The notes beneath the pieces are model-generated. The model did not search any database, was not told the DNA's origin, and worked only from the letters and a program-made list of their open reading frames with translations. The translations under genes and the position numbers were made by a program. This document shows positions 4,726 to 63,986 of a stretch of DNA of 64,000 bases, one piece after another. Origin of the DNA: Oceanispirochaeta sp. (GTDB taxonomy: Bacteria; Spirochaetota; Spirochaetia; DSM-2461); contig CAXXXD010000004.1 of NCBI GenBank assembly GCA_963663385.2, positions 960,001-1,024,000 of the forward strand, read 5' to 3'. The number at the start of each line of letters is the position of its first letter. Position 1 is the stretch's first letter.

Positions 4726-7700
4726 ATGACTACCTTCAATACAGCCGATATTATTGTACTGGCCATTGTAGCCATTGTCCTTTTTCTCTATCGGCAGCTG
4801 GATAAAAATAACAGATCTCTGGAAAAGGTTCGCAAGTACGCCGATAAAGTCCGATTGGATCTGGATAAACTGACGAAAGAGAAGAAAACCGAGATTCACG
4901 ATCTGAATATCGATATTGAACTTCAGGAGAAAACCAACCGGGAAATCCTTAAAAGAATCCAGAGCGCCAACAGCGAAGCCCTTCAGCGTTCGGAGGAGCT
5001 GGATACGCTTCGTACTCAGCTGGACAAGGCATCCGGGCGTTTGTCCGATCTGGATGAGCTGACCCGCAATGTGGATGAGAATCTGCAGAGGATCCGGAAA
5101 GAGTCGGAGTATGTGGATTCCGTCGGGCTTCGCCTTAATGATCTGATAAAAAGAACAGAAGAACTGAAAGGCGGTATGGGTGAACTTGTAGGCGCCTTTA
5201 AAAAGAAGAATGCCGCCAGCATAGACGAGCTGAAGAGTGCCTTCAGCGGTGAAATGACCGTGGAGTACCGCCGTTTTGCCGAAGAGTTTCAGGGGCTTCA
5301 GGAAAAACTGGACAGTTTCCAGAGTTCCGTTACCCGGCTTGTTGAACAGCGTGACCGTCTGGCTTCCGAGAAGATGCAGGATTTTACCGAACAGCTGGCA
5401 GCGGTTGAAAATGATTATAATGTCAGGATTGAAAAAACCTCGCAGGAAGCCCTGGCTCTGGAATCTGATGTCTTTGCCGAATTAAAAGAACTGCTGGGAA
5501 ATCATAAAGATACCCTTCAGAGGGATTGGGACAGAACATCCTGTGATCTGTCTGCCAAAATGGAGAATACAAGCGACAATCTGGAAGACCGGATGACCTC
5601 TCTTCAGGAAGAAATGGACAAGATGGCTTCTCATCTCTCTCAAACAACGGGAGAGCAGGATCATGTGCTGTCCTCCATGAAAGAGGAGCTGGAGGTTATG
5701 CTCCAGGCCTTTACAACCTCCCGGACCAGTATGAGCCGGGTGAAGGAAGAGGTGGATCAGGAGCTGGAAAGAATGGAATCCCGTCTGACCGCTCATAAAA
5801 CAGATGTTGAAACCAGGCTGACCGATTTTTCCGAAACATTTACGGGTCGTATTGAGGAAACCGCGGAATCTCTGCAGCTGGAGTCTTTAAAAGCCATAGA
5901 GAAGAAGCTGAAGGAGTATGAAAGCGGATTCTTTCCCCGTTTTAACAGGCTGGAACAGTTTATGGCCGATATGGATGAACTGGAGGGATCCCTTCGTCAG
6001 ACCATGGACGAGGTTCAGACAGGTGTTCTGGAAGACTTCAGCCAGTTTGACCGCAGGATGCAGGACCTTCGTTCAGATGAGGAGAAAGAGACCGAAGAGC
6101 GTGCCGATAAACTGCGTCAGGCTATGAAAGAGCTGGAGCAGGGACTGGATGATCTGAAAAGCCGGGCCTATGATAATGTTTCAGAGCAGCTTCAGGTTTT
6201 TGAAGATGATTTTTTTGCAGATCTCAAAAAACGGGACAATACCCTGCAGTCCAGTTTGAAAGAGTGGCAGGATAATCTGAATATTCAGATTGGCGAAATG
6301 GCTGATCAGCAGAATCGGGACAGGGATGAAGTAGAAAGAACCTATACGGCCGAGATGAACAAGCGCCTGGGAGAAGTTCAGTCCAGGGTTTATCAGCAGC
6401 TTGAGAAATTTCAGGGGCAGGTGGAAGGATTCCGGGAAGCCCTTGACAGCGGTATGGCTGAGGGTACGGGCATGATGCGGCAGTACCATGAGAACCTCTC
6501 CGGTGAGATTGGAAAACTGCAGGACGAATCCATGTCCTATATGACGGGAATCCTGGAGAAGATGAAAACCCATCTTCAGGACAGGCTGGATAAAACACGC
6601 AGCGATTTCGGTCAGAATATGGATAGCCTTTTTGTGGAACTGGAACAGAACAGGAAGGATTTTCACAGCCAGAATGAAGCGGTTCAGTCTGATGTCACAG
6701 CCTGGCAGAACCGGGTTCTTCAGCAGATTCGTGATCAGGAAGCGGATATTACGGAGCAGTACGGCAACTTCAAGGATAAGGTCGCCGAACAGATACAGGA
6801 AGTCCAGGACGATTTCAAGTCCCAGAAAGAAGAGCTTATCCTTTCTACCAATGAAGAGCGTGCCGATCTGAAGCAGGATCTGGCTTCCATGGGTGAGAAA
6901 GTTTACCAGCTGCAGAATGATCTGAAGGATAAAACATCCCAGACCCTTGAGAAATTCAACAGTGATTATAATCTGTTTATCCTGGAGTTTCAGAAGAAGA
7001 TGCGGGACTCCCAGAATGATGCGGAGCTGAAGATCCGGGAGATGCGTCAGGGCGTTAACGATGCCCGGGAGAAAATGGAAGCTTTCCAGAAGAAGCTTTT
7101 TACACGTATTGAGGATGATTCCCGTCATCTGACGGAAAATCTGGAGGAGATTAACCGGAAACAGCAGGATTTTATCGCCCAGACCCATGTGTTTGAAAAG
7201 GCGGATCAGCTTAAGGAATCCCTTACCCGTGATTTGATGAGCCTGAAAACCGAAATCCAGCGTGTGGAAGGCAATATGGATCGGCTGCAGGAGTATCAGG
7301 ACGGATTTGTCCGGGTTCAGGATCAGTACAGGGAAGTTCTGGAGCAGATCAATCGTTTTATGGACGAAAAACAGAAGGTGGACGAACTGGAAGAGAAGAT
7401 ATCCCGTATGGTCAGCCTCTCCAAGTCGGTGGATCTCAAGCTGGATCAGGTTACTTCTTTCCATGATATGCTGCAGCAGTATCAGACCAGGGTTAAGGAA
7501 CTGGAAGATCAACACCATGCCATTGACGCCCGGTTTGCCCGGATTGAATCCAAGGCGAAGATGGTAGACCATACCGCCGAAAGCGTGGACCGTTATACTG
7601 TAGTTCTAAACAATATGGAACAAACCCTGTCCGAAATGAAAAGTGAGATCGATCCTCTGGCCGCCCGTATGGAAGGGGTCGAATCTAAAGATAGGATACT

Positions 7701-51644: not shown

Positions 51645-52277
51645 TTAGCTCTCTATGGTTTCCAGAAATACAAGATTAAGCCCCCAGTTATCCCGGGGGG
51701 GGCCTCCGCACAATCCCTCTACATCCGTTTCAATGATTTCTTCATCCTTCCGGCTTATATTCCGTCCGATAACCATATGCCAGTTTACAGGGCTGTGTTC
51801 TTTTATAAACCGGGCTACTTCGTCCGGATTGTTTGTTTCATCCGTATACAGGATTATGCTCTCTTTACTGTCCAGGGCCGGAAGGATATTGCTCAGTTCC
51901 CGTCCATGAACGGAAATCTGGCGGGGGAGGGGGCTCTGCAGTCCCAGATAGGCTGAAAACACCTGAGCACTGCCTATGCCGGGAATGATTCTGTATTTCT
52001 CCCGGGGAAGTGTGCCGGTAAAGCGGCGGGAGAGGCTGAATATCAGAGGGTCTCCCGATACCAGAACGGCCAGTGTGAGAGAATCATCCATGGCTGCCAG
52101 TTTTCCGGGCAGTTCCGTCAGGGCTCCCTGGATGGACTCTCCTTTTTCTTCGGGAATTGCCATTTGCCGGAGGTGATGGGGAAAGGCATAAACCCTGTCG
52201 GCTTTTTCTATGATTTTTTTGGCTTTGTCCGTAATGTAATCCGGGTCTCCCGGTCCCATTCCTACCAGATATATCAT
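51645..52277 (-). CDS. cbiE: Precorrin-6Y C5-methyltransferase CbiE-like
   Basis: LVGMGPGDPDYIT, VLVSGDPL, IIPGIGSAQ, ISVHGR. Confidence 0.85.
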   Translation of the reverse strand: MIYLVGMGPGDPDYITDKAKKIIEKADRVYAFPHHLRQMAIPEEKGESIQGALTELPGKLAAMDDSLTLAVLVSGDPLIFSLSRRFTGTLPREKYRIIPGIGSAQVFSAYLGLQSPLPRQISVHGRELSNILPALDSKESIILYTDETNNPDEVARFIKEHSPVNWHMVIGRNISRKDEEIIETDVEGLCGGPPRDNWGLNLVFLETIES

Positions 52278-52671: not shown

Positions 52672-53022
52672 TTAACTGGCGGCTGGCGGATTATATTGTC
52701 TGGCTATCAGATGATTTATTTCCTCCCGGGATAGTACATCCGGCAGTCGTTTTCTTTCCCTGATTCCGTTAAGTTTATATGGGCGCTCTTTTTTAAGGAC
52801 CAGTTTTTAGAACAGTTTTATGGCAGACCATGCCAGCCGTCGCTGTTCGCTGGTTTTCTGCTCTCTGTCGAGGAACTCTGCAATTCTTGCGTCCGGTTCC
52901 GGTTCCGTTTTTCTGTTGAAGCGAAGAAACTGATCCAGATACAGGCAATACTCCCGAATGGTATTGCGGGAATAACTCCTGTTTCTCATTTCCCTTCGGA
53001 AAATATCCAGATAATTCTGCAT
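52672..53022 (-). pseudogene. Tyrosine recombinase (integron-integrase/Xer-like) pseudogene: nonsense codon and loss of the catalytic domain
   Basis: SAM-like N-domain (MRNRSYSRNTIREYCLYLDQFLRF..AWSAIKLF); TAA at 52809-52807, then same-frame read-through KLVLKKERPYKLNGIRERKRLPDVLSREEINHLI, the typical LPxVLSxEE entry to the catalytic domain; no R..HxxR..Y found downstream. Confidence 0.85.
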
Positions 53023-53068
53023 AAATCACGTCCTTTTATCTGAAGAACAATGAATAATTATCCCCTGA

Positions 53069-53097
53069 TTGCATTTCCGTTAAAATAAATCTAAAAT
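53069..53097 (+). promoter_or_regulatory. Pc-like promoter facing the cassette array
   Basis: TTGCAT-17 nt-TAAAAT between the recombinase start and the first cassette. Confidence 0.6.
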
Positions 53098-53106
53098 AAA
53101 TCACGC

Positions 53107-53134
53107 AATGCGCATAATTGTAGTTATTTGTCAT
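53107..53134 (+). other. attI-like primary recombination site with dif-like architecture
   Basis: AATGCGCATAA-TTGTAG-TTATTTGTCAT; G/TT at 53123 begins cassette 1 and partly matches its 3' core (ACATAAC). Confidence 0.65.
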
Positions 53135-53148
53135 TCTTTGGAGACTTA

Positions 53149-53796
53149 ATGAAAGAAATAAATATACCAAAACTGTATAAACAATACTTTGTGGATAAAA
53201 ATGAGGAAAGAAAAGTTTTATTCGAGAAATTGAAGGATACGTACAAACCACAGAAAGGTATTTACCCAGGAAGTTTCGTGCATATCTCTCCTTCTTTTTA
53301 TATTCAAGAAATGCTTTATATCGATTCTGATAAGAGAATTACAAAATTTTTTGAAGATGAAAAAGTCTTAAAATATATAAACCTTAATAAAACTTATGAA
53401 GAAAAACCTAAAATTAAATCATTGCAAGCGGACTTTTCAATTAATTTACCAATTGATGAGAATTATTTCGATATTATGTTTTCCTTTTTTGCAGGTTTTA
53501 TATCACAATCCTGCAAAAAATATTTGAAAAATAATGGTATACTGGTGTGTAATAACAGTCATGGTGATGCGAGCATCGCTTATACTGACAAAGAATATGA
53601 ATTAGTTGCTGTAATAAAAAGAAATGGAAACAATTTCAGCATAAATGATAAAGATTTGGATGAGTATTTCATAAAAAAAGATGGAACCTCCATTGATACA
53701 GATAAAGTTCTAAGTAAGATGATAGGAGAAAATTTTACAAAAAAAGGGTATGCTTATGTGTTTAAATTTAACCGATACCCAAAAAACAACACATAA
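53149..53796 (+). CDS. Cassette 1: class I SAM-dependent methyltransferase-like protein
   Basis: GIYPGS, YIDSD, FDIMFS, KYLKNNGIL; GGAG RBS; stop TAA lies inside the core ACATAAC. Confidence 0.7.
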   Translation: MKEINIPKLYKQYFVDKNEERKVLFEKLKDTYKPQKGIYPGSFVHISPSFYIQEMLYIDSDKRITKFFEDEKVLKYINLNKTYEEKPKIKSLQADFSINLPIDENYFDIMFSFFAGFISQSCKKYLKNNGILVCNNSHGDASIAYTDKEYELVAVIKRNGNNFSINDKDLDEYFIKKDGTSIDTDKVLSKMIGENFTKKGYAYVFKFNRYPKNNT

Positions 53797-53870
53797 CAGC
53801 TAATATGCGGTTCCGCTTTGCTTCACTCAAATCGCCTGCGGCGACTTCGCATATTCGCGGAACGTTATAG
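53791..53870 (+). repeat. attC-like site 1 (intact)
   Basis: ACATAAC-a-gctAATATGCG...CGCATATTcgc-ggaac-GTTATAG. Confidence 0.88.
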
Positions 53871-53966
53871 GCAATAAGCGCCGGCAGAAATTGTTTCTTT
53901 TGTTGGAAGAACTCGCTATCCATGGCTCGTAATAACTTTAAAGTTATAAAGGAGTGTGATAATATA

Positions 53967-54620
53967 ATGAATATGACATTATCTATTATAGGATTCTTCG
54001 GTGGCCTTTTATGTGCTATAGCCGATATGTTATTGGATATCAAAGGTAAAGATAATCTAAAATGTGGTACTAAAAAAATCATGGACAGCAACTGGGTCAA
54101 AATGCCTTCGTGGCGTTTTATCACATCCATTATAATTGTAATGTTTGCAGTTCCGATGTATAGTATGGGAGTTCTCTCGTTAGCAAATCAAATTGCGCTA
54201 AATAATAAATCCCTCGGTGATTTACTTAAACTTTCAATTTTTATTGGAGCAATGGGAGGTTTTTTTATTCATACCCTTATTTGTATTGTTCCTATTATCT
54301 ACAAGGAAATTATGAAAGAAAATAATTTTGAGCTTGCAGATCGAGTAATTACCAATGTGTATAAAGCTGTTAAAATCCCATTTGTTGTACTGTATATTAT
54401 TTTAATATTGATACCTGCAATTATTGTAATTTTTTCAATTAATACAGGATTATTATATGTCCCTAAATGGTTCGTTCTTCTGAACCCGGTAACATTTCAA
54501 ATAATAGGATGGGTTCTTCGAGCAATAAAAAAGGATTGGTTTTATGAAGTTCCTTCTATTTTTATGGCTAGTCTTGGTTTAGCTATGTATGGAATTATTG
54601 GAATAGTTAATTTGATTTAG
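53967..54620 (+). CDS. Cassette 2: multi-TM membrane protein (DUF6796-like)
   Basis: GGLLCAIADMLLD..G, about 6 TMs; AAGGAG RBS at 53949. Confidence 0.7.
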   Translation: MNMTLSIIGFFGGLLCAIADMLLDIKGKDNLKCGTKKIMDSNWVKMPSWRFITSIIIVMFAVPMYSMGVLSLANQIALNNKSLGDLLKLSIFIGAMGGFFIHTLICIVPIIYKEIMKENNFELADRVITNVYKAVKIPFVVLYIILILIPAIIVIFSINTGLLYVPKWFVLLNPVTFQIIGWVLRAIKKDWFYEVPSIFMASLGLAMYGIIGIVNLI

Positions 54621-54685
54621 GCTTATTAACTGAATAATATACTGTGGCCGTTTGCCATCCATGGCTAACTGCTTTTAAATAATCT

Positions 54686-54777
54686 GGCACTTACTGCAAA
54701 TATATGTGGCGCCTTCGGCATAAGCTTCGCAACATTTTTGCTACGCAAAAAAGTCATATATTTGCAAAACACTAGAC
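54686..54777 (+). repeat. attC-like site 2 (left core deleted, right core GTT changed to ACT)
   Basis: Perfect 12-bp stem TGCAAATATATG/CATATATTTGCA, then aaac-ACTAGAC. Confidence 0.7.
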
Positions 54778-54969
54778 GCCATTTTTTTACTAGGGAATAC
54801 AAAATGAAAAATACCAAAATACTATTAATCATATTTACAGGCATTTCATTATACTTAGTAGCTTTTAAATTCCTTCTAATGTTTCAGGATCGTTCTGCTA
54901 CTGCAAAGTAAGCGGTAATTCTCTCCATCTTGCGTGATTTCGAAATGATTATATACTCCATGAAAAATC

Positions 54970-55266
54970 ATGGAGGAACCTAATATGACCAACTGGAATT
55001 GGCCTGAATTAATCGAAGAACAAAAACAGAGCGGGAAAACAATTTCTGAGTTCTGCGCAGATAAAGGAGTTCACTATACATCTTTCTACAAGAATCGAAA
55101 AAAATTAAAGAAAAGCAGTTTTATTGAAATCAAACAGAAAGCCCCGGTATTACAGCCACAAAACCCCACAATGATACTCAGATACAAGGATTTCTCATTG
55201 GATCTGGCATCAGGTTATAACAGGCAATCCCTGATAGATCTTCTGAAGATTCTGAGAGAGTTGTAA
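54970..55266 (+). CDS. tnpA: IS66 accessory protein TnpA
   Basis: W..LIEEQKQSGKTISEFC..GVHYTSFY HTH. Confidence 0.88.
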   Translation: MEEPNMTNWNWPELIEEQKQSGKTISEFCADKGVHYTSFYKNRKKLKKSSFIEIKQKAPVLQPQNPTMILRYKDFSLDLASGYNRQSLIDLLKILREL

Positions 55267-55610
55267 TGTTTGTTGACCTGAACGAATACCGGATCTTTCT
55301 GAGACCCGGCACGACAGACTTAAGAAAAGCGATCAACGGATTATCTCTGTTTATCCAGAATGAAATGAATCATGATTTATTCGCCAAATCGCTATTCCTC
55401 TTTTGTAACCGGCAGAGAAAACTTCTGAAAATTGTCTACTGGGATAATACCGGTTTTTGTCTCTGGCAGAAGAGACTGGAAGAGAACAGATATCCCTGGC
55501 CGGAAACAGATGAAGATGCTAAAGAGATCAGCATGGATGAATTGAAAATGCTCCTGACGGGAATAGACTTTTTCAAAGCGCATAAAAAATTATCATATTC
55601 CCGTATTTAG
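55266..55610 (+). CDS. tnpB: IS66 accessory protein TnpB
   Basis: TDLRKAINGL, LFLFCNRQR..LKIVYWD..GFCLWQKRLE. Confidence 0.95.
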   Translation: MFVDLNEYRIFLRPGTTDLRKAINGLSLFIQNEMNHDLFAKSLFLFCNRQRKLLKIVYWDNTGFCLWQKRLEENRYPWPETDEDAKEISMDELKMLLTGIDFFKAHKKLSYSRI

Positions 55611-55649
55611 AGATTTTATAATTATAGAAACTTTGATAGAATTCCCCGT

Positions 55650-57212
55650 ATGGAGAATGAAGAACAGCATTTAAGAGAACAACTTGATGCACAAAAAATA
55701 GAAATTGCTGAACTGAAAAGACTTAATGCCATTCTCCAGGAGCAAGTAGCAAAACTGAACCTCCTGCACTTTGGAACAAAATCAGAGAAGATAACTGCCG
55801 AAGATAAGAAACAAGCTTCTCTCTTCAATGAAGCGGAAGATAGTGCTTTTGCTCAGAATGATGAAGAGCAGGAGAAAAATGTTATTGAAACGGTTGAGGT
55901 CGGTTCCTACAAGAAAAATATTAAAAAATCCGGCCGGAAACCTCTGCCGGCAGATCTGCCGAGAGAGATCGTGGAATATGATATTCCGGATAAAGATAAG
56001 ATCTGTGCCTGCGGAACAGAAAAGACCTGTATCGGTGAAGATGTTTCCGAGAGAGCAAAAATTATTCCGTCAAAAGTCGTTGTTATTCAGGAACGTAGAA
56101 AAAAGTACTCCTGCAAGAATTGTGAAGGGACGACTCTTGATGAAGCTGCTGTACAGACCGCAGAAGGAGCAAAGCATCTGGTCGCGGGCAGTATTGCCGA
56201 TGAAAGCCTGCTCGCTTGGAGTATAAGCGAAAAGTTTGAGTTCGCTCTTCCTTTCTACAGGCAATCAAAACGGTTAAACCAGATAGGCATACCGATCCCC
56301 CGGGCGACATTGAGCAATCTTACGATAAAATCGGCAACGGCATGTAAGCCTCTATATGATTTGCTGAAAGAAAACATTAAATCCGGTTCCATTATTAATG
56401 CCGATGAGACGAGAGTTCAGGTTCTAAAGGAACCGAAACGAAAAGCTTCAGATAAATCATGGATGTGGGTCTTTCTCAGAGGAGATCCCGATAAAAAATG
56501 TGTCATATTTCAGTATGAGCAAGGCCGATCCCATGCAATTCCGTTGGATTTCTTGGAAAATTACTCTGGCTGGGTTCAAACTGATGATTTTGAGGCCTAC
56601 CATACTGCCCGAAAAAAAGTTGATGGAGATATAAAGCATGTCTTATGCTGGGCCCATGCCAGAAGAAAGTTCTTCCAATATTGGGAATCAACCAAGAAAA
56701 AAGATGCAGAAGCAAAGCAAATTCTCGACCTGATAAAGGATCTGTTTGAACTGGAATCATTACGGGATAATTATTCGCTAAAAGGGTTTCATAAACAGCG
56801 ACAAAATAGAGCAGAACCGATACTAGATAAGTTACAGAAAAAACTGACGAAGCTTTATCCTCAAGTACCTCCTTCTTTAGAGTTCGGTAAGGCGATGAAG
56901 TATACATTGAGCAACTGGGAGCAGTTGGTTCTATATCTGAAAAATCCTGTTTTGACTCCTTCGAACAATAGCGCTGAAAATGCAATCAGACCCTTCGTAA
57001 TCGGGAGAAAAAACTGGCTTTTTGCCGGAAGCCCGAAAGGTGCTGAATCATCGGCAATTCTGTACAGTCTCGTTGAATCTGCGAAGATGAACAATCTTCC
57101 AGTTTATGCTTACTTGTACTTTATCTTCCGGGAATTGCCCTGCTGTGAAAAACAGAGTGATTATGAAAAATTACTTCCCTATAATTTAACTGCTGAAGAT
57201 ATTGCAATCTGA
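55650..57212 (+). CDS. tnpC: IS66 DDE transposase TnpC
   Basis: FGTKSEK, zinc finger, NADET, QTDD, CWAHARRKF, SNNSAENAIRP. Confidence 0.97.
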   Translation: MENEEQHLREQLDAQKIEIAELKRLNAILQEQVAKLNLLHFGTKSEKITAEDKKQASLFNEAEDSAFAQNDEEQEKNVIETVEVGSYKKNIKKSGRKPLPADLPREIVEYDIPDKDKICACGTEKTCIGEDVSERAKIIPSKVVVIQERRKKYSCKNCEGTTLDEAAVQTAEGAKHLVAGSIADESLLAWSISEKFEFALPFYRQSKRLNQIGIPIPRATLSNLTIKSATACKPLYDLLKENIKSGSIINADETRVQVLKEPKRKASDKSWMWVFLRGDPDKKCVIFQYEQGRSHAIPLDFLENYSGWVQTDDFEAYHTARKKVDGDIKHVLCWAHARRKFFQYWESTKKKDAEAKQILDLIKDLFELESLRDNYSLKGFHKQRQNRAEPILDKLQKKLTKLYPQVPPSLEFGKAMKYTLSNWEQLVLYLKNPVLTPSNNSAENAIRPFVIGRKNWLFAGSPKGAESSAILYSLVESAKMNNLPVYAYLYFIFRELPCCEKQSDYEKLLPYNLTAEDIAI

Positions 57213-57516
57213 TCCATCAGTCCTAAAATGCTGTCAATGTGGGAAGAATTACCGCTTACACTGCAAATCCCCCAGCAGTTTCTGTTTCAGCCAACTTAGT
57301 TGCATCGGCCCTGATTTTCATTTTTTTCTTCCTGGCTTCTATTCTTTTTTCCTTTAGTATTTTTACTTGTATTCAAATTTTAAAATTTAATATATTTCTT
57401 TTTATTGGCTATTCAATTTTGCTTTTCTTATCTGACTTCACTCTTGTCGGTATTTCATTTATAGCATTAGTAATTATATTAATTAGAGGCCTTTTACACT
57501 CAAAGCGTAAAAAACA

Positions 57517-57605
57517 GCGTATAAAAAAATATACGTTACGCTTTGCTTCACCCAAATTGGCCGATGGCTCTGTGGTTTGCTTCGTATATTCTCGAAACGT
57601 TAGGT
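57517..57605 (+). repeat. attC-like site 3 (left core degenerate)
   Basis: GCGTATAAA (GCGTCTAAC expected from the cassette start ACTAGACGC), AATATACG...CGTATATTctc-gaaac-GTTAGGT. Confidence 0.8.
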
Positions 57606-57662
57606 GTAATGCTTGACAGAAAAAAAAATCAAAAATAATCTTAAATGAACGGAGGATAAATA

Positions 57663-58289
57663 ATGAAAATTAAGGTTCTAATAGTTATTTTTACAGTTAT
57701 TCTTTTGGCTGGGTGTGCAAGTGGTCCAAAATCACAGGCATACGTATATAAAGATCAATATTGGGATGAGCTTATTTCGCGAAATAAGGTAGTTCAATTA
57801 CTTGATACTCGGTTTGAAGTGGCTTCTCAAGTTGGAAATACACAAAAAGGAGCTCCTTTAGAAAACATTGAAAAAGATGAAATAACTCCTATTGTTGTTG
57901 AAATTCTTAAGAAACATGATTTTGAAGTAAATGTTGTTGGTGGAATCCAATTAGTAGACTCAAATTATACTAACTTTCCACAGGAAAGAATACCCGAAGA
58001 GTCAAGAGATAAATTCTTTGTCCAGGCGTCTTCAATTTACCTTGATAGAAGTTCAACAAATTCAAATTACCAATCTATTTTTAAACTTTACTATGTAACT
58101 CCCGAAGGCGATATTATAAAATTAGGTTTTGGATTGTCAGAACAAAGAGTAGAACATTATGATTCCCTTAATGCTGATGATTTAATTCAAATAAAACAGA
58201 ATGTAAGTACTTCAGATGGTTTCGAAACAATAGTTCTTTCTGTTGTTAAATCTTCTATAGAAACGTTTTTAACCAAAAAAGAGCTCTAA
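57663..58289 (+). CDS. Cassette 4: hypothetical lipoprotein
   Basis: Lipobox LLAGC; GGAGG RBS; TTGACA-17-TAATCT at 57613-57641. Confidence 0.8.
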   Translation: MKIKVLIVIFTVILLAGCASGPKSQAYVYKDQYWDELISRNKVVQLLDTRFEVASQVGNTQKGAPLENIEKDEITPIVVEILKKHDFEVNVVGGIQLVDSNYTNFPQERIPEESRDKFFVQASSIYLDRSSTNSNYQSIFKLYYVTPEGDIIKLGFGLSEQRVEHYDSLNADDLIQIKQNVSTSDGFETIVLSVVKSSIETFLTKKEL

Positions 58290-58304
58290 ACCCCAAAGCA
58301 TTAC

Positions 58305-58420
58305 ACCTACCAGCAAATATACGCTGCGGCTTCGCCTTGGCCTTCGGCAAATAAACCCTTTGAATATATTCAAGCCCTCAAGGGGCCGGGGTTACTTCGT
58401 ATATTCTCGGAATGTTTAGG
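58305..58420 (+). repeat. attC-like site 4
   Basis: ACCTACC-a-gcaAATATACG...CGTATATTctc-ggaat-GTTTAGG. Confidence 0.85.
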
Positions 58421-58487
58421 CAATAAGCACTTTAATTTTTAATAAAATAGAGAAAATGCCACCCCGGCGGCTCGTATTGGAGGTAAA

Positions 58488-58892
58488 ATGAAACATTTAG
58501 GTTCGTGTCTTTGCGGAAATATCAAATATGAAATAAGAGGGAATTTTGAGAACTTTTTTTTCTGTCACTGTAAATCTTGTCGTAAAGATACTGGGTCAGT
58601 TCATGCTTCAAATCTTTTTTCAACAACTGCAACATTAAAATGGTTGAAAGGAGAGGAAAAAGTAAAAATGTATAACCACAAAAATTCAGGCCACATAAAA
58701 AGCTTCTGTCCTAACTGTGGCTCTGCATTACCTAATATTCAAATGGATAGTAAACTACTTGTTGTTCCTGCAGGAAGTCTTGATACAGATATAGAAATGG
58801 TTCCTACTGGTCACATCTATTTAAAAGAGAAAGCGAATTGGGATCACAATCTTGAGATGATTCCACACTATGAGGATTTGCCAAAAGAATAA
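58488..58892 (+). CDS. Cassette 5: GFA/CENP-V family Zn protein
   Basis: GSCLCG, CHCKSCRK, FCPNCGS. Confidence 0.93.
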   Translation: MKHLGSCLCGNIKYEIRGNFENFFFCHCKSCRKDTGSVHASNLFSTTATLKWLKGEEKVKMYNHKNSGHIKSFCPNCGSALPNIQMDSKLLVVPAGSLDTDIEMVPTGHIYLKEKANWDHNLEMIPHYEDLPKE

Positions 58893-58975
58893 AATGTGTA
58901 GAAATCTGAATTTACCGGAAATCAGGCATCGTTCGCCGCCATCTGCACACATTTCAATATATCAGAGCTTAATGC

Positions 58976-59061
58976 CTATAACAGCGTTTTATATGCGGTG
59001 CCTGCGACGTGGGCTTCGTAACAGCCTATAGCAAACGTCATATAAACGCGGAACGTTATAG
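58976..59061 (+). repeat. attC-like site 5 (intact)
   Basis: CTATAAC-a-GCGTTTTATATG...CATATAAACGC-ggaac-GTTATAG. Confidence 0.9.
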
Positions 59062-59134
59062 GCAATAAGCGGTTAGATTTTCTATAAGCAATAAGAATCC
59101 GCCATATATGGCGGATAAAAAAAATAAAAAAGTA

Positions 59135-59165
59135 TTGCAGTTGTCCCAACGTCAAGTTCTATACT
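59135..59165 (+). promoter_or_regulatory. MerR-type promoter with 19-bp spacer
   Basis: TTGCAG-19 nt-TATACT with an imperfect dyad TTGTC..GTCAA in the spacer, directly upstream of a MerR gene. Confidence 0.6.
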
Positions 59166-59210
59166 CCAAAGTGATGATCATCAATAACTGTAAAAGAATG
59201 GATATTAACT

Positions 59211-60131
59211 ATGAATGATTCTGTATCAATAAACGAGATTTCTTCTCTGTTAGGAGTAACAAGCAGAACTATAAGGTTTTGGGAATCGGAAGGTCTTTTT
59301 GAATGTAAGAGACATCCATATTCAGGTCATAGGCTTGTTGAAAACACTATGGTAAATAAAGTTAAACTTTGTTCAGAACTGCGAAATATTGGAATTTCAA
59401 TAAAAGATATTAAACGGATTTTCGAATCGCAATCACTAGCTTCTGTAACAAAAGTTATTGAAGAAAACCTTGCATCAATAGATGCCGATTCTCAAATCTT
59501 TGAGAATCGAAAAGCAATGTTAATAATGCTTTTTAATATTCTCAAAACAGAAGAAAAGATCGCTGCAGGTTCTTTCATTGATTTTCATTCTTTTCTAATC
59601 AATTTACTTCAAGAAAATAACTTGAAGAAATCACAGGAGAAGAAAATGATAAATAGTGACCTGAAAAAAGTGTATGAAATAGTAGAGCTTCCAAAAATGA
59701 GAGTGGTTTATAATATTTCAGTTAGTAAAAGTCCTGAAGATGAAGCAATAGAACCGATACTGGAATGGATAAAAGAGAAAGGGCTTCTTGGTGTATCAAG
59801 ATTGTTTGGTGGAAATGTGAAACCATTTCCCAAGGATTCAAATAGTGAATATGGCTATGGGATGTGTGCGTCAATACCGGCAGATATTGATGTTCCAGAT
59901 CATTTGAAAGAGATGGAAATCCCGGGTGGTTTATATGCACTACTCCCTAGCGATGATGATATTGCTGATTCATGGAAAAAGTTTATGAAAAGTTTTAAGA
60001 AGGATAAGAAGTATTGCTCCGATAGATCTAGATTGTGTTTTGAAGAGCATATTTATTATGGAAGGCCTGGCGATAGTGGGTACTCCTTTAAAATAAATTT
60101 ATTAGAACCAATAAAAGATGTTAATCAGTAG
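59211..60131 (+). CDS. Cassette 6: MerR-family regulator with GyrI-like effector domain
   Basis: SINEISSLLGVTSRTIRFWESEGL HTH; IVELPKMRV..GYGMCASIP..EIPGGLYA..CFEEH. Confidence 0.9.
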   Translation: MNDSVSINEISSLLGVTSRTIRFWESEGLFECKRHPYSGHRLVENTMVNKVKLCSELRNIGISIKDIKRIFESQSLASVTKVIEENLASIDADSQIFENRKAMLIMLFNILKTEEKIAAGSFIDFHSFLINLLQENNLKKSQEKKMINSDLKKVYEIVELPKMRVVYNISVSKSPEDEAIEPILEWIKEKGLLGVSRLFGGNVKPFPKDSNSEYGYGMCASIPADIDVPDHLKEMEIPGGLYALLPSDDDIADSWKKFMKSFKKDKKYCSDRSRLCFEEHIYYGRPGDSGYSFKINLLEPIKDVNQ

Positions 60132-60203
60132 ATAATATCTTTAGCAGAGAGGCCGTTCGCCATCCTTGGCTCACTACTTGTTATTCAACGCAGCGCTTAC
60201 TAC

Positions 60204-60293
60204 CTATAACAGAGTTTACAAGGTTGGGCCTACGGCCTCTCCCAAATTGTCTTGCTGAGCAAGACAACTTTCTGTAAAATCAAAACGTTAAGT
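60204..60293 (+). repeat. attC-like site 6 (intact)
   Basis: CTATAAC-a-GAgTTTACA...TGTAAAaTC-aaaac-GTTAAGT. Confidence 0.85.
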
Positions 60294-60378
60294 GAAATCT
60301 CGTTTTTTGACTGGAGACAGGATTTTTGATAAAATGATATCAATGAGGTTTGCATGATAATTTTCAAAGGGAAATAAC

Positions 60379-61227
60379 ATGAAAAAAGCAGTAAAATATT
60401 TCACTATTTGTATGGTATTAGTATTTACCATTTCAAGTTGCTCCAGAAAAGATGAAAAACTGTCTGTATTTCAATTAACCGGGGAATTAAGAATTACTGA
60501 GATTGAAAGCAATATATTTTTAGTTACGCACAGCTTTCCCTGGCCGGGTAATTCTTTGATGATTGTTATGGATAAAAAGAATATTCTCTGGATCGATACA
60601 CCATATACACCGGAGGCCACTGCTTTAGTATTGAACTGGATTGAAGAAAAGTATGGAAAAGGGTATTCAATTACAGAAATCAATACAGGGTTTCATATTG
60701 ACAATTTGGGTGGCAATCAAGAATTAGTAAAAAGAAATATACCAATATATGGCTCTAATTTGACGTGCGAGCTTCTTGGAACAAGAAGCAAAAACACGAT
60801 GCTGAATATGATGAATTGGCTAAAAGGGGAAAAATACGAAGATTACAGAAACGTGTATTCTGATTTTACATTTTACAGCCCTACTATTACTTTTAACATT
60901 CATGATGAACAAACAATTGTTTTTGGATCAAATGAAGTGATTATATATTATCCTGGACCAACACATACGTATGACAATCTGGTTGTCTATATACCAAGTC
61001 AAAAAATTCTTTTTGGAGGATGTATGATACTGTCCACCGATGCCGATAAAGTTGGTTATATTGAAGATGGGAACTTGGAAGAATGGGCAAATTCACTCAC
61101 AAAATTAGAAAATCGTTTTGATAATATAAGAGTCATTGTTCCTGGTCATGGAAATCCAGGAGACTCTACGCTAATAGCTCATACAAAAGACATCGTTAAT
61201 GCTTCTGGAGAAACGACAGAAGAATGA
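60379..61227 (+). CDS. Cassette 7: subclass B1 metallo-beta-lactamase, SPS-1/SPM-1-like, predicted lipoprotein
   Basis: IDTP, TGFHIDNLGG (G116-x-H118-x-D120), PTHTYDN (H196), FGGC (C221), PGHG (H263); lipobox ISSC. Confidence 0.85.
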   Translation: MKKAVKYFTICMVLVFTISSCSRKDEKLSVFQLTGELRITEIESNIFLVTHSFPWPGNSLMIVMDKKNILWIDTPYTPEATALVLNWIEEKYGKGYSITEINTGFHIDNLGGNQELVKRNIPIYGSNLTCELLGTRSKNTMLNMMNWLKGEKYEDYRNVYSDFTFYSPTITFNIHDEQTIVFGSNEVIIYYPGPTHTYDNLVVYIPSQKILFGGCMILSTDADKVGYIEDGNLEEWANSLTKLENRFDNIRVIVPGHGNPGDSTLIAHTKDIVNASGETTEE

Positions 61228-61238
61228 AAAATTATTTC

Positions 61239-61275
61239 GCCTAACAGCGAATATGCGGTTACGCCTCCGGTTCCA
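61239..61275 (+). repeat. attC-like site 7, left half only
   Basis: GCCTAAC-a-GCGAATATGCGGTTACGCCTCCGGTTCCAT, nearly the same as the left half at 62911, then runs directly into coding-like sequence. Confidence 0.75.
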
Positions 61276-61404
61276 TACTGTGATAGAGAAGAACTAGTTA
61301 AAATATTGAGTGATACAGAATCAATGAAATTTTATCCGGCACCGTTTAGCCATAAGAAAGTAGAGAACTGGATAAAATGGAATGAAATTTGTGAAATATT
61401 CTGA
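61276..61404 (+). pseudogene. Fragment of a RimJ/RimL-type GNAT acetyltransferase
   Basis: DREELVKILSDTESMKFYPAPFSHKKVENWIKWN; no start codon, early stop. Confidence 0.65.
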
Positions 61405-61512
61405 GAAAGAAGTTATGGGAGAAGCGGTTCGGGAAATACTCTAATGTATACACCGATGAAATGTTATATATCAGCAGAACATTCCGTCTGATTATCTTTG
61501 TAGAGATGTTAA

Positions 61513-61806
61513 ATGGAAAATATTGAAACATATAAAGCAACAGATGGTGAGAACATATTAGGATTTATCTCCTTACAGGATGAGTATCTTGCTGCCATTT
61601 TCGTGAGATCTGAATTCCAGGGGAGAGGGATTGGATCTTTATTATTAAACCATGCAATGGATCTCCGTAATAATCTGCAGTTAGAAATGTTCTGTAAAAA
61701 CCAAAAGAGTGTAGAATTTTATAAAACAAAAGGATTTTCTATAATTTCCGAATCAATAGATAATGAGACAGGAGAAAATGAGTTTGTCATGGGGTGGCAG
61801 AAATAA
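61513..61806 (+). pseudogene. GNAT acetyltransferase (YjaB-like), apparently N-terminally truncated
   Basis: ILGFISL..LAAIFVRSEFQGRGIGSLLL..NQKSVEFYKTKGF; only 97 aa. Confidence 0.7.
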
Positions 61807-61812
61807 AACCGG

Positions 61813-61877
61813 GCATAGCTCGAATATGCGATATCGATTCACCACAGTCAACTTCGAATATTTGTGGGATGTTATAT
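61813..61877 (+). repeat. Degenerate attC-like site
   Basis: GCATAGC-t-CGAATATGCG...ACTTCGAATATTTG-tgggat-GTTATAT. Confidence 0.7.
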
Positions 61878-61946
61878 CAAAATTCAAGTATAATTGTGTT
61901 AATTATACCGGAACAAACCGTGGTGCGGTAGTAGAAAGAAGAGTAA

Positions 61947-62840
61947 ATGATTAAATATACAGAAAATATTGAAGATGTTAAGAAATTTATCCAGGAGAAT
62001 TATAATCAAACCATTGATTTGAGTTCTTTAGCGAATGTTGCCTGTTTATCATCTTTCCATTTTTCTAGGATTTTTCGTTCGATTACGGGTTATACGCCTA
62101 TGCAATATCTAAAGAAAATCCGACTTGAAAAATCAATCTACTATCTGACACATAGTTCCTTAAATGTCTCCGAAGTTGCATATAAATGTGGTTTCAATTC
62201 AATATCAAGTTTCAATTCTTCCTTTAAAGCACAATATAATAGAAGACCGAATGAATTCAGAAACATACAAAAAAGCAAGATTAAGGAAGAATTCGGCAAT
62301 AATCAGAAAGAGTTTTCCATAGAGAACAAACATAATCTCAATAACTCGTTTTTAAGGAGAATTTGGGATATGAATGTGAATATCAAAGAACTGCCGGAAT
62401 ACAGAATTGCATTTTTCAGGCATGTCGGAAGTTATTTAAATACAGGAGAAAACTGGAATAAATTACTTAAATGGGTTGAAGCAAAGGATCTATTTAAAAC
62501 AAATCCATTGTTTATTGGAATATCACGAGATGATCCAGCAACAACAGAGGAAAATGCATGTAGACATGATGCCTGTGTAACTCTGCCGGGAGACTTTAAT
62601 GAAGAGGCCGATGGGAGTGAGGTCTTGTATGATAGAATAGCATCTGGAAAATACGCAATCTATGAGTTTTATGATACTATAGATAAGTTGGGATTAGTAT
62701 ACAGAAATCTTTTTATAGAATGGTTACCCCAAAGTGATTATGAAATGGATTGCAGGCCATGTTTAGAAATAAATTTAAATAATCCGGCTGATGATCCTGA
62801 AGGAAAAAGCAGATGTAACATCTGTATTCCAATAAAATAG
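61947..62840 (+). CDS. Cassette: AraC-family regulator with GyrI-like domain
   Basis: LANVACLSSFHFSRIF..VAYKCGFNSISSF; FFRHVGSY..DDP..CRHDAC..GKYA..WLPQS. Confidence 0.93.
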   Translation: MIKYTENIEDVKKFIQENYNQTIDLSSLANVACLSSFHFSRIFRSITGYTPMQYLKKIRLEKSIYYLTHSSLNVSEVAYKCGFNSISSFNSSFKAQYNRRPNEFRNIQKSKIKEEFGNNQKEFSIENKHNLNNSFLRRIWDMNVNIKELPEYRIAFFRHVGSYLNTGENWNKLLKWVEAKDLFKTNPLFIGISRDDPATTEENACRHDACVTLPGDFNEEADGSEVLYDRIASGKYAIYEFYDTIDKLGLVYRNLFIEWLPQSDYEMDCRPCLEINLNNPADDPEGKSRCNICIPIK

Positions 62841-62910
62841 TACCTATTTGGACCGTCTTAAAATACACCCTTGTATTTTGGGGGAATAAATGAAGTAAGC
62901 TATAATCTTC

Positions 62911-62992
62911 ATATAACAGGGAATCCGCGGTTACACCTTCGGCTCCATTCAAAGGATCTCCTGTAACTTAGCATATTCTCAGAACGTAAAAT
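62911..62992 (+). repeat. attC-like site (right core GTT changed to GTA)
   Basis: ATATAAC, complementary to this cassette's GTTATAT start, -a-GGGAATccGC...GCatATTCTC-agaac-GTAAAAT. Confidence 0.8.
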
Positions 62993-63016
62993 GAAATACC
63001 AGGGGGCGTAATCAAG

Positions 63017-63209: not shown

Positions 63210-63243
63210 AGATAACCGCCGCATATTTTCTGAGCCGTTAAAT
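63210..63243 (+). repeat. Collapsed attC-like site (internal deletion)
   Basis: AGATAAC joined almost directly to the right arm CGCATATTttc..GTTAAAT. Confidence 0.55.
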
Positions 63244-63448: not shown

Positions 63449-63506
63449 TGTATTTTATATATTGTTGAAATGTTATAGGCAATGATTCAGCTGGAGAAAA
63501 ACGTAC

Positions 63507-63986
63507 ATGAAATATATGTGTCCATTGATAGTTGTAAGTGATGTAAAACGCTCACGGGAATTCTATGAAAAGATTCTGAAACAGACTGTCAAATATGATT
63601 TCGGGGAAAATGTGACATTTGCTGGTGATTTCGCCATACATGAAAAAGCCCATTTTGAATCACTGATAAATAATGCTGAAATTAAAGAGAAATCGAATAA
63701 TTTTGAACTTTATTTTGAGCATGATGATTTGGAAGAGATGGTGGTTAGAATAAAGGAATCAGGGCTGGAGTTTGTACATGAAATAGTAGAACAGCCCTGG
63801 AAGCAGCAGGTTCTAAGGTTTTATGACTATGATAAAAATATGATAGAAGTCGGAGAAAGACTGGAGCATACAGCGTATAGATTATCAAAGCAGAATTATT
63901 CGATTGAAGACATATGCAGAATAACGTATCTGGAAAAAGAAATTGTTGAAAACGCGATAGATGAGTATTCGCATCTGGAGGGATAA
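63507..63986 (+). CDS. Cassette: VOC/glyoxalase-bleomycin-resistance family protein
   Basis: LIVVSDVKRSREFYEKIL, ELYFE, EQPWKQQVLRFYDYDKNMIEV. Confidence 0.9.
   Translation: MKYMCPLIVVSDVKRSREFYEKILKQTVKYDFGENVTFAGDFAIHEKAHFESLINNAEIKEKSNNFELYFEHDDLEEMVVRIKESGLEFVHEIVEQPWKQQVLRFYDYDKNMIEVGERLEHTAYRLSKQNYSIEDICRITYLEKEIVENAIDEYSHLEG

Follow-up and report, generated by a model that had tools for sequence, protein, structure and literature searches.

A probable decayed integron-like platform with asymmetric cassette hairpins and an I2-less tyrosine recombinase in Oceanispirochaeta

Introduction

In classical integrons a tyrosine recombinase gene (intI) lies beside an insertion site (attI) at which tandem single-gene cassettes accumulate, and each cassette carries a site (attC) that recombines as a folded bottom strand. 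Classical attC sites have spacers of 5 and 5–6 nucleotides (nt), and their left inner arm carries an extrahelical base. Here we analyse a stretch of 64,000 nt from Oceanispirochaeta sp. (Spirochaetota; GenBank assembly GCA_963663385.2, contig CAXXXD010000004.1, positions 960,001 to 1,024,000 of the forward strand), which we refer to as the window, and within it an AT-rich array, running from 53107 to about 63990, of co-oriented single genes with related imperfect palindromes in between. An earlier reading of this DNA, made from the sequence alone, had described these palindromes as cassette hairpins with an asymmetric geometry, in which 1 nt separates the left AAC core from the stem and 5 nt separate the stem from the right GTT core. 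We propose, with a probability of roughly three in four that includes the folded-site mechanism set out below, that the array is a decayed integron-like platform served by a short tyrosine recombinase, related to Xer and IntI, that lacks the I2 insert of IntI.

The resemblance to classical integrons (class 1, VchIntIA with VCR, Treponema-type IntI) takes in the recombinase gene beside an insertion site, the tandem single-gene cassettes, the RYYYAAC and GTTRRRY cores with a crossover at G↓TT, the first cassette joined to attI at G↓TT, a 6-nt core on one strand, a bottom strand that folds better and a C-terminal SPL motif. The system differs from classical integrons in that the kin recombinases are without the IntI additional domain and fall outside the IntI clade, and in that canonical attC registers occur at chance level in their loci. 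[quoted passage not shown] The pdif modules share the 11-6-11 dif-like sites, and pdif sites are double-stranded targets of XerC/D without hairpins. The closest analogue is the attP(+) of CTXφ and the integrative mobile elements exploiting Xer (IMEX), in which two inverted dif-like sites fold into a single one with unequal centres (12 and 7 nt there, 10 and 6 nt here), likewise combined with a loop in the overlap, mismatched arms and no I2. The 12- and 7-nt central regions are those of attP1 and attP2 (PMC3089051, Table II), which differ from one another at the second base of the XerC arm, in position (the only aspect compared) that of the inner-arm wobble described below, and in CTXφ missing homology blocks the second exchange (PMC3442271). 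What sets the present family apart from CTXφ and IMEX is a dedicated recombinase with its own attI, in place of the host XerCD at chromosomal dif, and the many unrelated cassettes whose arm sequences are free to vary.

Passages of PMC4889954, PMC4792948, PMC8352920, PMC8618304 and bioRxiv 10.1101/2022.02.06.479319 take either the additional domain or a canonical attC layout as the defining trait, and no I2-less cassette system is described in them. No published description of I2-less cassette arrays was found in a search that left subscription journals and supplements outside its scope, and prior publication is possible. Comparative evidence indicates that the system is integron-like, yet its recombinase falls outside IntI and its sites outside attC as these are defined. 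Such arrays have probably been missed or filed as orphan clusters, because detection tools require an I2 profile together with a canonical attC model (PMC4889954).

Site geometry and recombinase type

The geometry of the sites was compared between sequences flanking short recombinase genes and those flanking true IntI genes, drawn from Spirochaetota genomes, metagenomes and viral contigs. Of 283 loci, 189 were typed and kept and 94 were set aside as small duplicates or as untyped, which gave an I2-less (short) set of 117 loci and 1.13 Mb and an IntI set of 72 loci and 1.07 Mb. With the stem held in a fixed register relative to the cores (+4 being the 1-nt/5-nt layout), the short loci yielded 63 sites at +4, 25 at +3, 7 at +2 and 2 in canonical registers, against 5.0, 3.0, 1.3 and 2.7 in shuffles, whereas the IntI loci yielded 0 at +4, 4 at +3 and 76 in canonical registers (shuffles 2.7, 1.0 and 2.0), control counts that agree with the classical spacer figures. 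A blind alignment in which the 4-nt gap was penalised divided the individual loci in the same way. When half-sites were chosen by their flanking letters, blind to pairing, 70 of the 165 unique pairs from short loci had at least 8 base pairs (about 1.3 in shuffles), with the best helix at +4 in 42, at +3 in 20, at +2 in 4 and elsewhere in 4, and none of the 28 pairs from IntI loci had as many. On these counts the 1/5-type geometry is evidently tied to an I2-less tyrosine recombinase.

The stems differ in sequence and still covary, as the sequence-only reading had held. Across an alignment of 10 sites, both partners change in 7 of 11 stem pairs and 87.8% of cells pair, against 27–47% when the arms are slid, and among 45 unique +4 sites, which were selected for pairing and are uncorrected for kinship, most stem columns contain three or four Watson–Crick (WC) pair types. 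We also agree that no extrahelical base is conserved in the inner arm, and attribute the missing bases to a partner recombinase without the I2 insert, which the earlier reading had missed along with the fact that the window copy of the gene is broken. It had further taken the 4-nt offset to be invariant. In the larger set the sites do lie far above chance at +4 and +3, but the family has offsets of +4, +3 and +2, and 4 is not a constant. The +3 and +2 offsets are common in phage-borne arrays.

In the window itself, where sites were scored by their best 11-bp helix as WC pairs plus bottom-strand G·T pairs, hairpins were found where the earlier reading had placed them, and the best helix lies at +4 for the sites at 53795, 58309, 60208 and 62915. 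Canonical registers fit the sites at 53795 (0 of 7) and 60208 (1 of 7) badly, which bears out the non-canonical geometry. A strict scan of the window alone finds a single site with at least 9 of 11 pairs at 1/5 and no prominent offset, because most sites are eroded; the 1/5 pattern is present, but the window by itself is insufficient as proof.

Two conserved mismatches mark one strand of these sites. Among the 45 unique +4 sites an A follows AAC in 44, and GTT is preceded by C in 36 and by T in 9. Bottom-strand closure of the 1x5 loop is by G·T in 35 and by A–T in 9, leaving a pyrimidine-rich bulge, while the same position on the top strand gives A·C. The second mismatch lies in the outer stem, where the two ends of a cassette pair over about 10 bp, break at position 11 and then pair over about 5 bp more (the ends of 31 canonical cassettes pair over about 7 bp). 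Position 11 is WC-paired in 0 of 43 cassettes, and A at +11 (65 of 69) with C at -11 (55 of 69) makes it a second bottom-strand G·T, a bias absent from 70 canonical sites. The inner arm has the same kind of wobble at its position 10 in 25 of the 69 sites, chiefly those of phage or Bacteroidota-like arrays. For 53 of 69 sites the fold of lower energy is that of the bottom strand, whose core pairing probability is 0.69 against 0.33 for the top strand, and the stem mismatches comprise 38 bottom-strand G·T, 11 top-strand G·T and 25 others. The bottom-strand G·T that closes the loop into a pyrimidine bulge, together with the second wobble 11 nt out in the outer stem, is a new feature of such sites.

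The polarity of the sites tracks attI and not the genes, which lie on the bottom strand in the phage arrays L216, L219, L222 and L230. Viral contigs L216, L219, L222, L226, L230, L211 and L212 carry the same sites with the genes inverted inside the cassettes.

The partner recombinase

The gene divergent from the array (52696–53022, minus strand) is a broken short tyrosine recombinase, which matches Phage_int_SAM_4 but lacks the catalytic domain; 71 codons precede an in-frame stop at codon 72 and homology stops near codon 109, so that the copy ends upstream of the I2 region. Searched against longer proteins, the 71-residue remnant gave no match at E<=0.001. A family search located relatives of the remnant in 8 of 37 other genomes, with close kin in Spirochaetales/Spirochaetaceae assemblies. 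The intact kin are about 266 residues long, are 57–58% identical to the part covered by the remnant and have no I2 insert, their alignment to VchIntIA breaking at 178–247, which is the I2 region; I2 is absent in 20 of 20 aligned kin, and the catalytic R-K-H-R-H-Y is invariant in all 20. Their best sequence-family match is to archaeal XerA, which resolves chromosome dimers (202.5 bits, cut-off 220), and they match the integron integrase model TIGR02249 in two stretches with 185 bits, under the cut-off of 265. A predicted model of the recombinase (mean predicted local distance difference test score 88) has VchIntIA, at the top, and XerA as its best fold matches.

A tree was made of 42 rows, the extraction filter having removed 11 of the 33 short loci and 3 of the 21 IntI loci that were listed. 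Its 19 IntI rows lie together on one side of a 100/100 branch, inside which 0 of 22 short recombinases fall. The tree has a single long-branch outgroup and an open base, so that a sister group and an ancestral grade are indistinguishable and the order of events is not resolvable. The position of VchIntIA W157 gave no discrimination, as most IntI rows carry R there too.

Many Spirochaetota I2-less recombinases (L027–L053) have an N-terminal extension of about 100 residues that is absent from the window's subgroup. A Clostridium locus (L289:11953-13990) holds a related I2-less recombinase paired with an IS91 transposase, without sites, so that the recombinase family extends beyond the cassette system. 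In another locus two tRNA genes come immediately after an I2-less recombinase that has an array (L124:6965-7238).

Cassette boundaries and attI

Between the remnant and the array lies a dif-like 11-6-11 site (53107–53134, plus strand), the putative attI, which resembles sites upstream of kin recombinases. Its right arm belongs to cassette 1, and the crossover would fall between 53123 and 53124 (G↓TT). Among the recombinase rows listed, dif-like attI candidates were present at 12 of 30 (one genome being counted twice). Bacteroidota-like loci have their arrays downstream of the recombinase and on its strand. Arrays or cassette starts in this arrangement were observed in L137, L144, L158, L286 and L291, where the attI spacing looks less regular (6–7 nt).

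The start of a cassette matches its own end better than its partner in the same hairpin in 32 of 43 cases, with 4 ties and 7 worse. A 751-bp cassette (81% identical) stands first at attI in one genome (G014) and internally in another (G015), with identity running from the G of GTT through its own hairpin to GTTA. In a boundary check, 2 of 8 duplicated pairs had clean ends on both sides, the others being paralogous or mis-anchored. For an intact array, no sequencing run was listed. These comparisons indicate that the cassettes are mobile units, running from TT through the gene and its hairpin to the next G, and that the dif-like attI next to the recombinase gene is where they are inserted. No hairpin lies between attI and the first gene, which would put the cut, as for integrons, at AA↓C in the bottom strand of the right core. 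A 2.3-kb unit stands in tandem inside one array (L013:6393-12601), possibly a repeated cassette duplication.

Proposed mechanism and alternative explanations

In the mechanism that we propose, the bottom strand would fold into two 11-bp arms with a centre of 6 nt on one strand and 8–10 nt on the cleaved strand, and the outer arm would be cut once, at AA↓C, in the strand whose pyrimidine bulge lies two bases 3′ of the cut. One exchange would need only the C:G pair, the sole pair shared with attI, and the freely varying 4 bp beside the inner arm would offer no homology to attI and leave a second exchange unsealed; for want of that homology the junction would be resolved by replication, as for CTX phage and attC. 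Preference for the bottom strand would come from the conserved mismatches, which form G·T there but A·C mispairs on the top strand, and bulge and G·T wobbles together would substitute for the extrahelical bases read by I2. The sequence-only reading had suggested that the folded strand rebuilds a dif-like site with a 4-nt bulge that marks the strand. Its bottom-strand left half, CGCATAT-6 nt-TTAT, is seen at 53795, where the spacer of the right half is 10 nt, and the folded bottom strand does rebuild a dif-like site with a bulge, though one of 2–4 nt rather than a constant 4. The bulge is on the bottom strand as proposed and may itself act as strand selector, but it is one of several marks, the G·T wobbles being conserved as well. 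For classical attC sites, a contribution of the central spacer and the terminal structure to strand choice is reported, as is recombination at some sites that have no extrahelical bases (passages of PMC5027507); in the present family this role would fall to the bulge and the wobbles alone.

Several points weigh against the proposed platform. Recombination by I2-less recombinases is itself a prediction from comparison, I2 has been held necessary for folded-site recombination (in passages of PMC4792948 and PMC4889954), and in the window the enzyme is broken and 1 of about 9 sites is clean. At least 2 sites were found in only 19 of the 117 I2-less loci, so that an I2-less recombinase does not imply an array; 2 of the 19 (L060, L069) may be repeats or noise. 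This class also includes short contigs, wrong-side flanks, probable XerC/D and the IS91-linked L289, and the loci are related, which means that the counts are not independent events. The attI spacing is less regular in Bacteroidota-like loci, and the inner-arm wobble, confined to the minority of sites given above, is rare in Spirochaetota arrays.

It is unlikely that the host's chromosomal XerC/XerD recombine these sites, as for CTX phage, with the short recombinase as an accessory: attI and both half-sites are indeed dif-like, 9 of 11 letters of the right half agree with the XerC arm of VGJ-type attP (PMC3089051, Table III) and the genome has two Xer-sized recombinase genes, but the outer arm differs between cassettes as a XerD arm would not, only one base pair is in common with attI, a catalytically complete recombinase gene is retained beside attI, and decay coincides with loss of the adjacent gene, in one genome only. 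We find it less likely again that the sites are drifted ordinary attC sites on which a classical IntI acts in trans, the short recombinase being a bystander. A full IntI (381 bits) does lie elsewhere in the genome, on another contig at C2:1688005-1688940, where C2:1680000-1700000 yielded no canonical attC, and IntI1 recombines the veb1 attC precisely, though at a low rate (PMC3518468). Against this, sites at +4 number 63 in the I2-less loci and 0 in the 72 IntI loci, and the geometry is conserved with covariation, as drift would not leave it; in many genomes attI adjoins the short gene, and the sites of the window decay despite the IntI in the genome.

Two further explanations do without folded-site recombination. 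In one, the left halves with their 6-nt spacers recombine as double strands, in the manner of pdif sites, and the hairpin is formed by an inverted second site; although the left half shares the 6-nt spacing with attI, junctions map to the GTT of the right half, where the duplex spacer is 8–10 nt, the 6-nt spacers vary between sites and so offer no homology for two exchanges, and only folding as a single strand accounts for the compensatory changes and the strand bias of the G·T pairs, all of which makes this account quite improbable. Least probable is that the hairpins are RNA elements, terminators or stabilisers, that stand between genes by chance. Hairpins do follow stop codons in Spirochaetota arrays, but the better-folding strand tracks attI polarity rather than transcription, the same sites occurring with top-strand genes in Spirochaetota arrays and with bottom-strand genes in phage arrays, the junction mapping contradicts such a role and no Rfam family matches the sites. 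An Rfam/Flavo-1 check (for Flavo-1, PMC2864571 and PMC9723704) in 5 genomes gave no match, but its controls gave none either.

Organisation of the locus in the window

The window holds a dead copy of the system, with its recombinase broken and its sites eroding. All open reading frames (ORFs) of the array are on the plus strand. Cassette 1 (ORF 53128–53796, 222 residues from a TTG start, no family match) ends in site A (53787–53874), the sole clean site, which has AAC at 53795, 1 nt, an 11-bp stem, 5 nt and GTT at 53864, with 10 WC and 0 bottom-strand G·T pairs at +4, C at -11 and A at +11. Cassette 2 encodes a DUF6796 protein (53922–54620) and is followed by site B (54684–54781), whose stem is a perfect 11 bp (11+0) at +4 (54692), with both core triplets lost and about 10 nt gone on the left. 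Cassette 3 contains an IS66 element (tnpA, tnpB and transposase, 54908–57259) with an 8-bp target duplication at 54900–54907 and 57260–57267, and ends in site C (57515–57609), with the right half intact (GTT 57599) and the left half eroded.

The ORF of cassette 4 (57663–58289, 208 residues) has a lipoprotein-like start and matches no family; between its two ends, 15 of 16 nt are complementary. Site D (58301–58424) has 9 WC and 1 G·T pairs at +4 (58309) and a left core changed to ACC. Cassette 5 encodes a GFA family protein (58488–58892), and site E (58972–59065; 58980) has the 1/5 geometry with one extra T in its left arm, as the sequence-only reading had noted, and a fixed-register score of 7 at +3 and 6 at +4. 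Cassette 6 (59211–60131) encodes a MerR helix-turn-helix (HTH) and a GyrI-like/Cass2 domain, and the cores of site F (60200–60297; 60208) are intact, with 8 WC and 1 G·T pairs at +4. Cassette 7 (60379–61227) encodes a protein of the metallo-beta-lactamase fold that scores 180.7 bits against the subclass B1 model, under its cut-off of 200.

Site G (61235–61276) is a left half only (61243), and after a GNAT acetyltransferase remnant (61513–61806) comes site G′ (61808–61881; 61816), with 8 WC and 0 G·T pairs at +4 and an eroded left core; the earlier reading had passed over both the half-site at 61243 and the site at 61816. An ORF for an AraC HTH with a GyrI-like domain (61947–62840) precedes site H (62907–62996; 62915), which has 7 WC and 1 G·T pairs at +4 and a right core changed to GTA. 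Another eroded remnant lies near 63214–63240, a right half-site at 63452–63482 (GTT 63472), and the last cassette-like ORF, glyoxalase-like, at 63507–63986, beyond which no more sites of the 1/5 type were found. A sigma-70-like site, sought as a Pc promoter driving the array, was not found in 52950–53200. A cbiE-like cobalamin gene (51645–52277) adjoins the platform, and transporter-like genes lie past the array, beyond the window.

Relatives on plasmids and beside resistance genes

A plasmid search with the Spirochaetota recombinase at 1e-45 gave no match, while a Bacteroidota-like family member used as query has relatives on 88 plasmid records; a search of phage records returned 1 unannotated match. 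A full +4 site is present on a Flagellimonas plasmid. Truncated I2-less recombinases stand directly upstream of tet(X3) and of blaVEB-3, both of which start at a G↓TT core with A at +11. At tet(X3) (L284:5670-5860 and 7025-7080; NZ_CP041297.1) the truncated recombinase is annotated 'tpnF', a G↓TT core precedes the gene and a left half-site follows it, the right half being missing with the partner cut off. In the blaVEB-3 context the veb1 cassette follows an I2-less recombinase and, in place of attI1, an attI-like junction. In passages of a resistome paper, 'XerD' is listed next to tetX and catB11 and attC is unmentioned (PMC11194056).

The features of the family are seen on the veb1 cassette (L292:1835-1985, NZ_CP033574.1; L287:7750-7860, NZ_CP083462.1), which now sits in class 1 integrons. 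In a class 1 integron its ends form 10 of 10 WC pairs with the wobble at position 11 (C at -11, A at +11), and its attC has A after AAC, AAACC before GTT, a +3 offset, the inner-arm wobble and one additional unpaired base in the left arm. Aubert et al. found the veb1 attC to be about 50-fold less active with IntI1 than the aadB attC and left the cause open (PMC3518468). In print it is an inefficient attC and not a member of another family, whereas its features suggest that the clinical resistance gene blaVEB-1 is flanked by the same kind of site as those of the I2-less family.

Implications

A wider reading, which we hold only tentatively, is that the family is a widespread surviving form of integron from before I2, present in Spirochaetota, Bacteroidota and phages, in which a Xer-like enzyme would recombine folded single strands recognised through a bulge and G·T wobbles alone, that it represents the missing step from CTX-type Xer recombination to IntI and attC, and that it is an unrecognised upstream source of clinical cassettes such as veb1 and probably tet(X3). 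Escudero et al. ask how attC was selected before I2 existed, and note in the same passages that a complete cassette system working on single strands was not known for any Xer-like enzyme (PMC4792948). The family described here would supply a matched enzyme, attI and cassette sites, with which the question of integrons before I2 becomes testable, and the system may show the origin of integrons.

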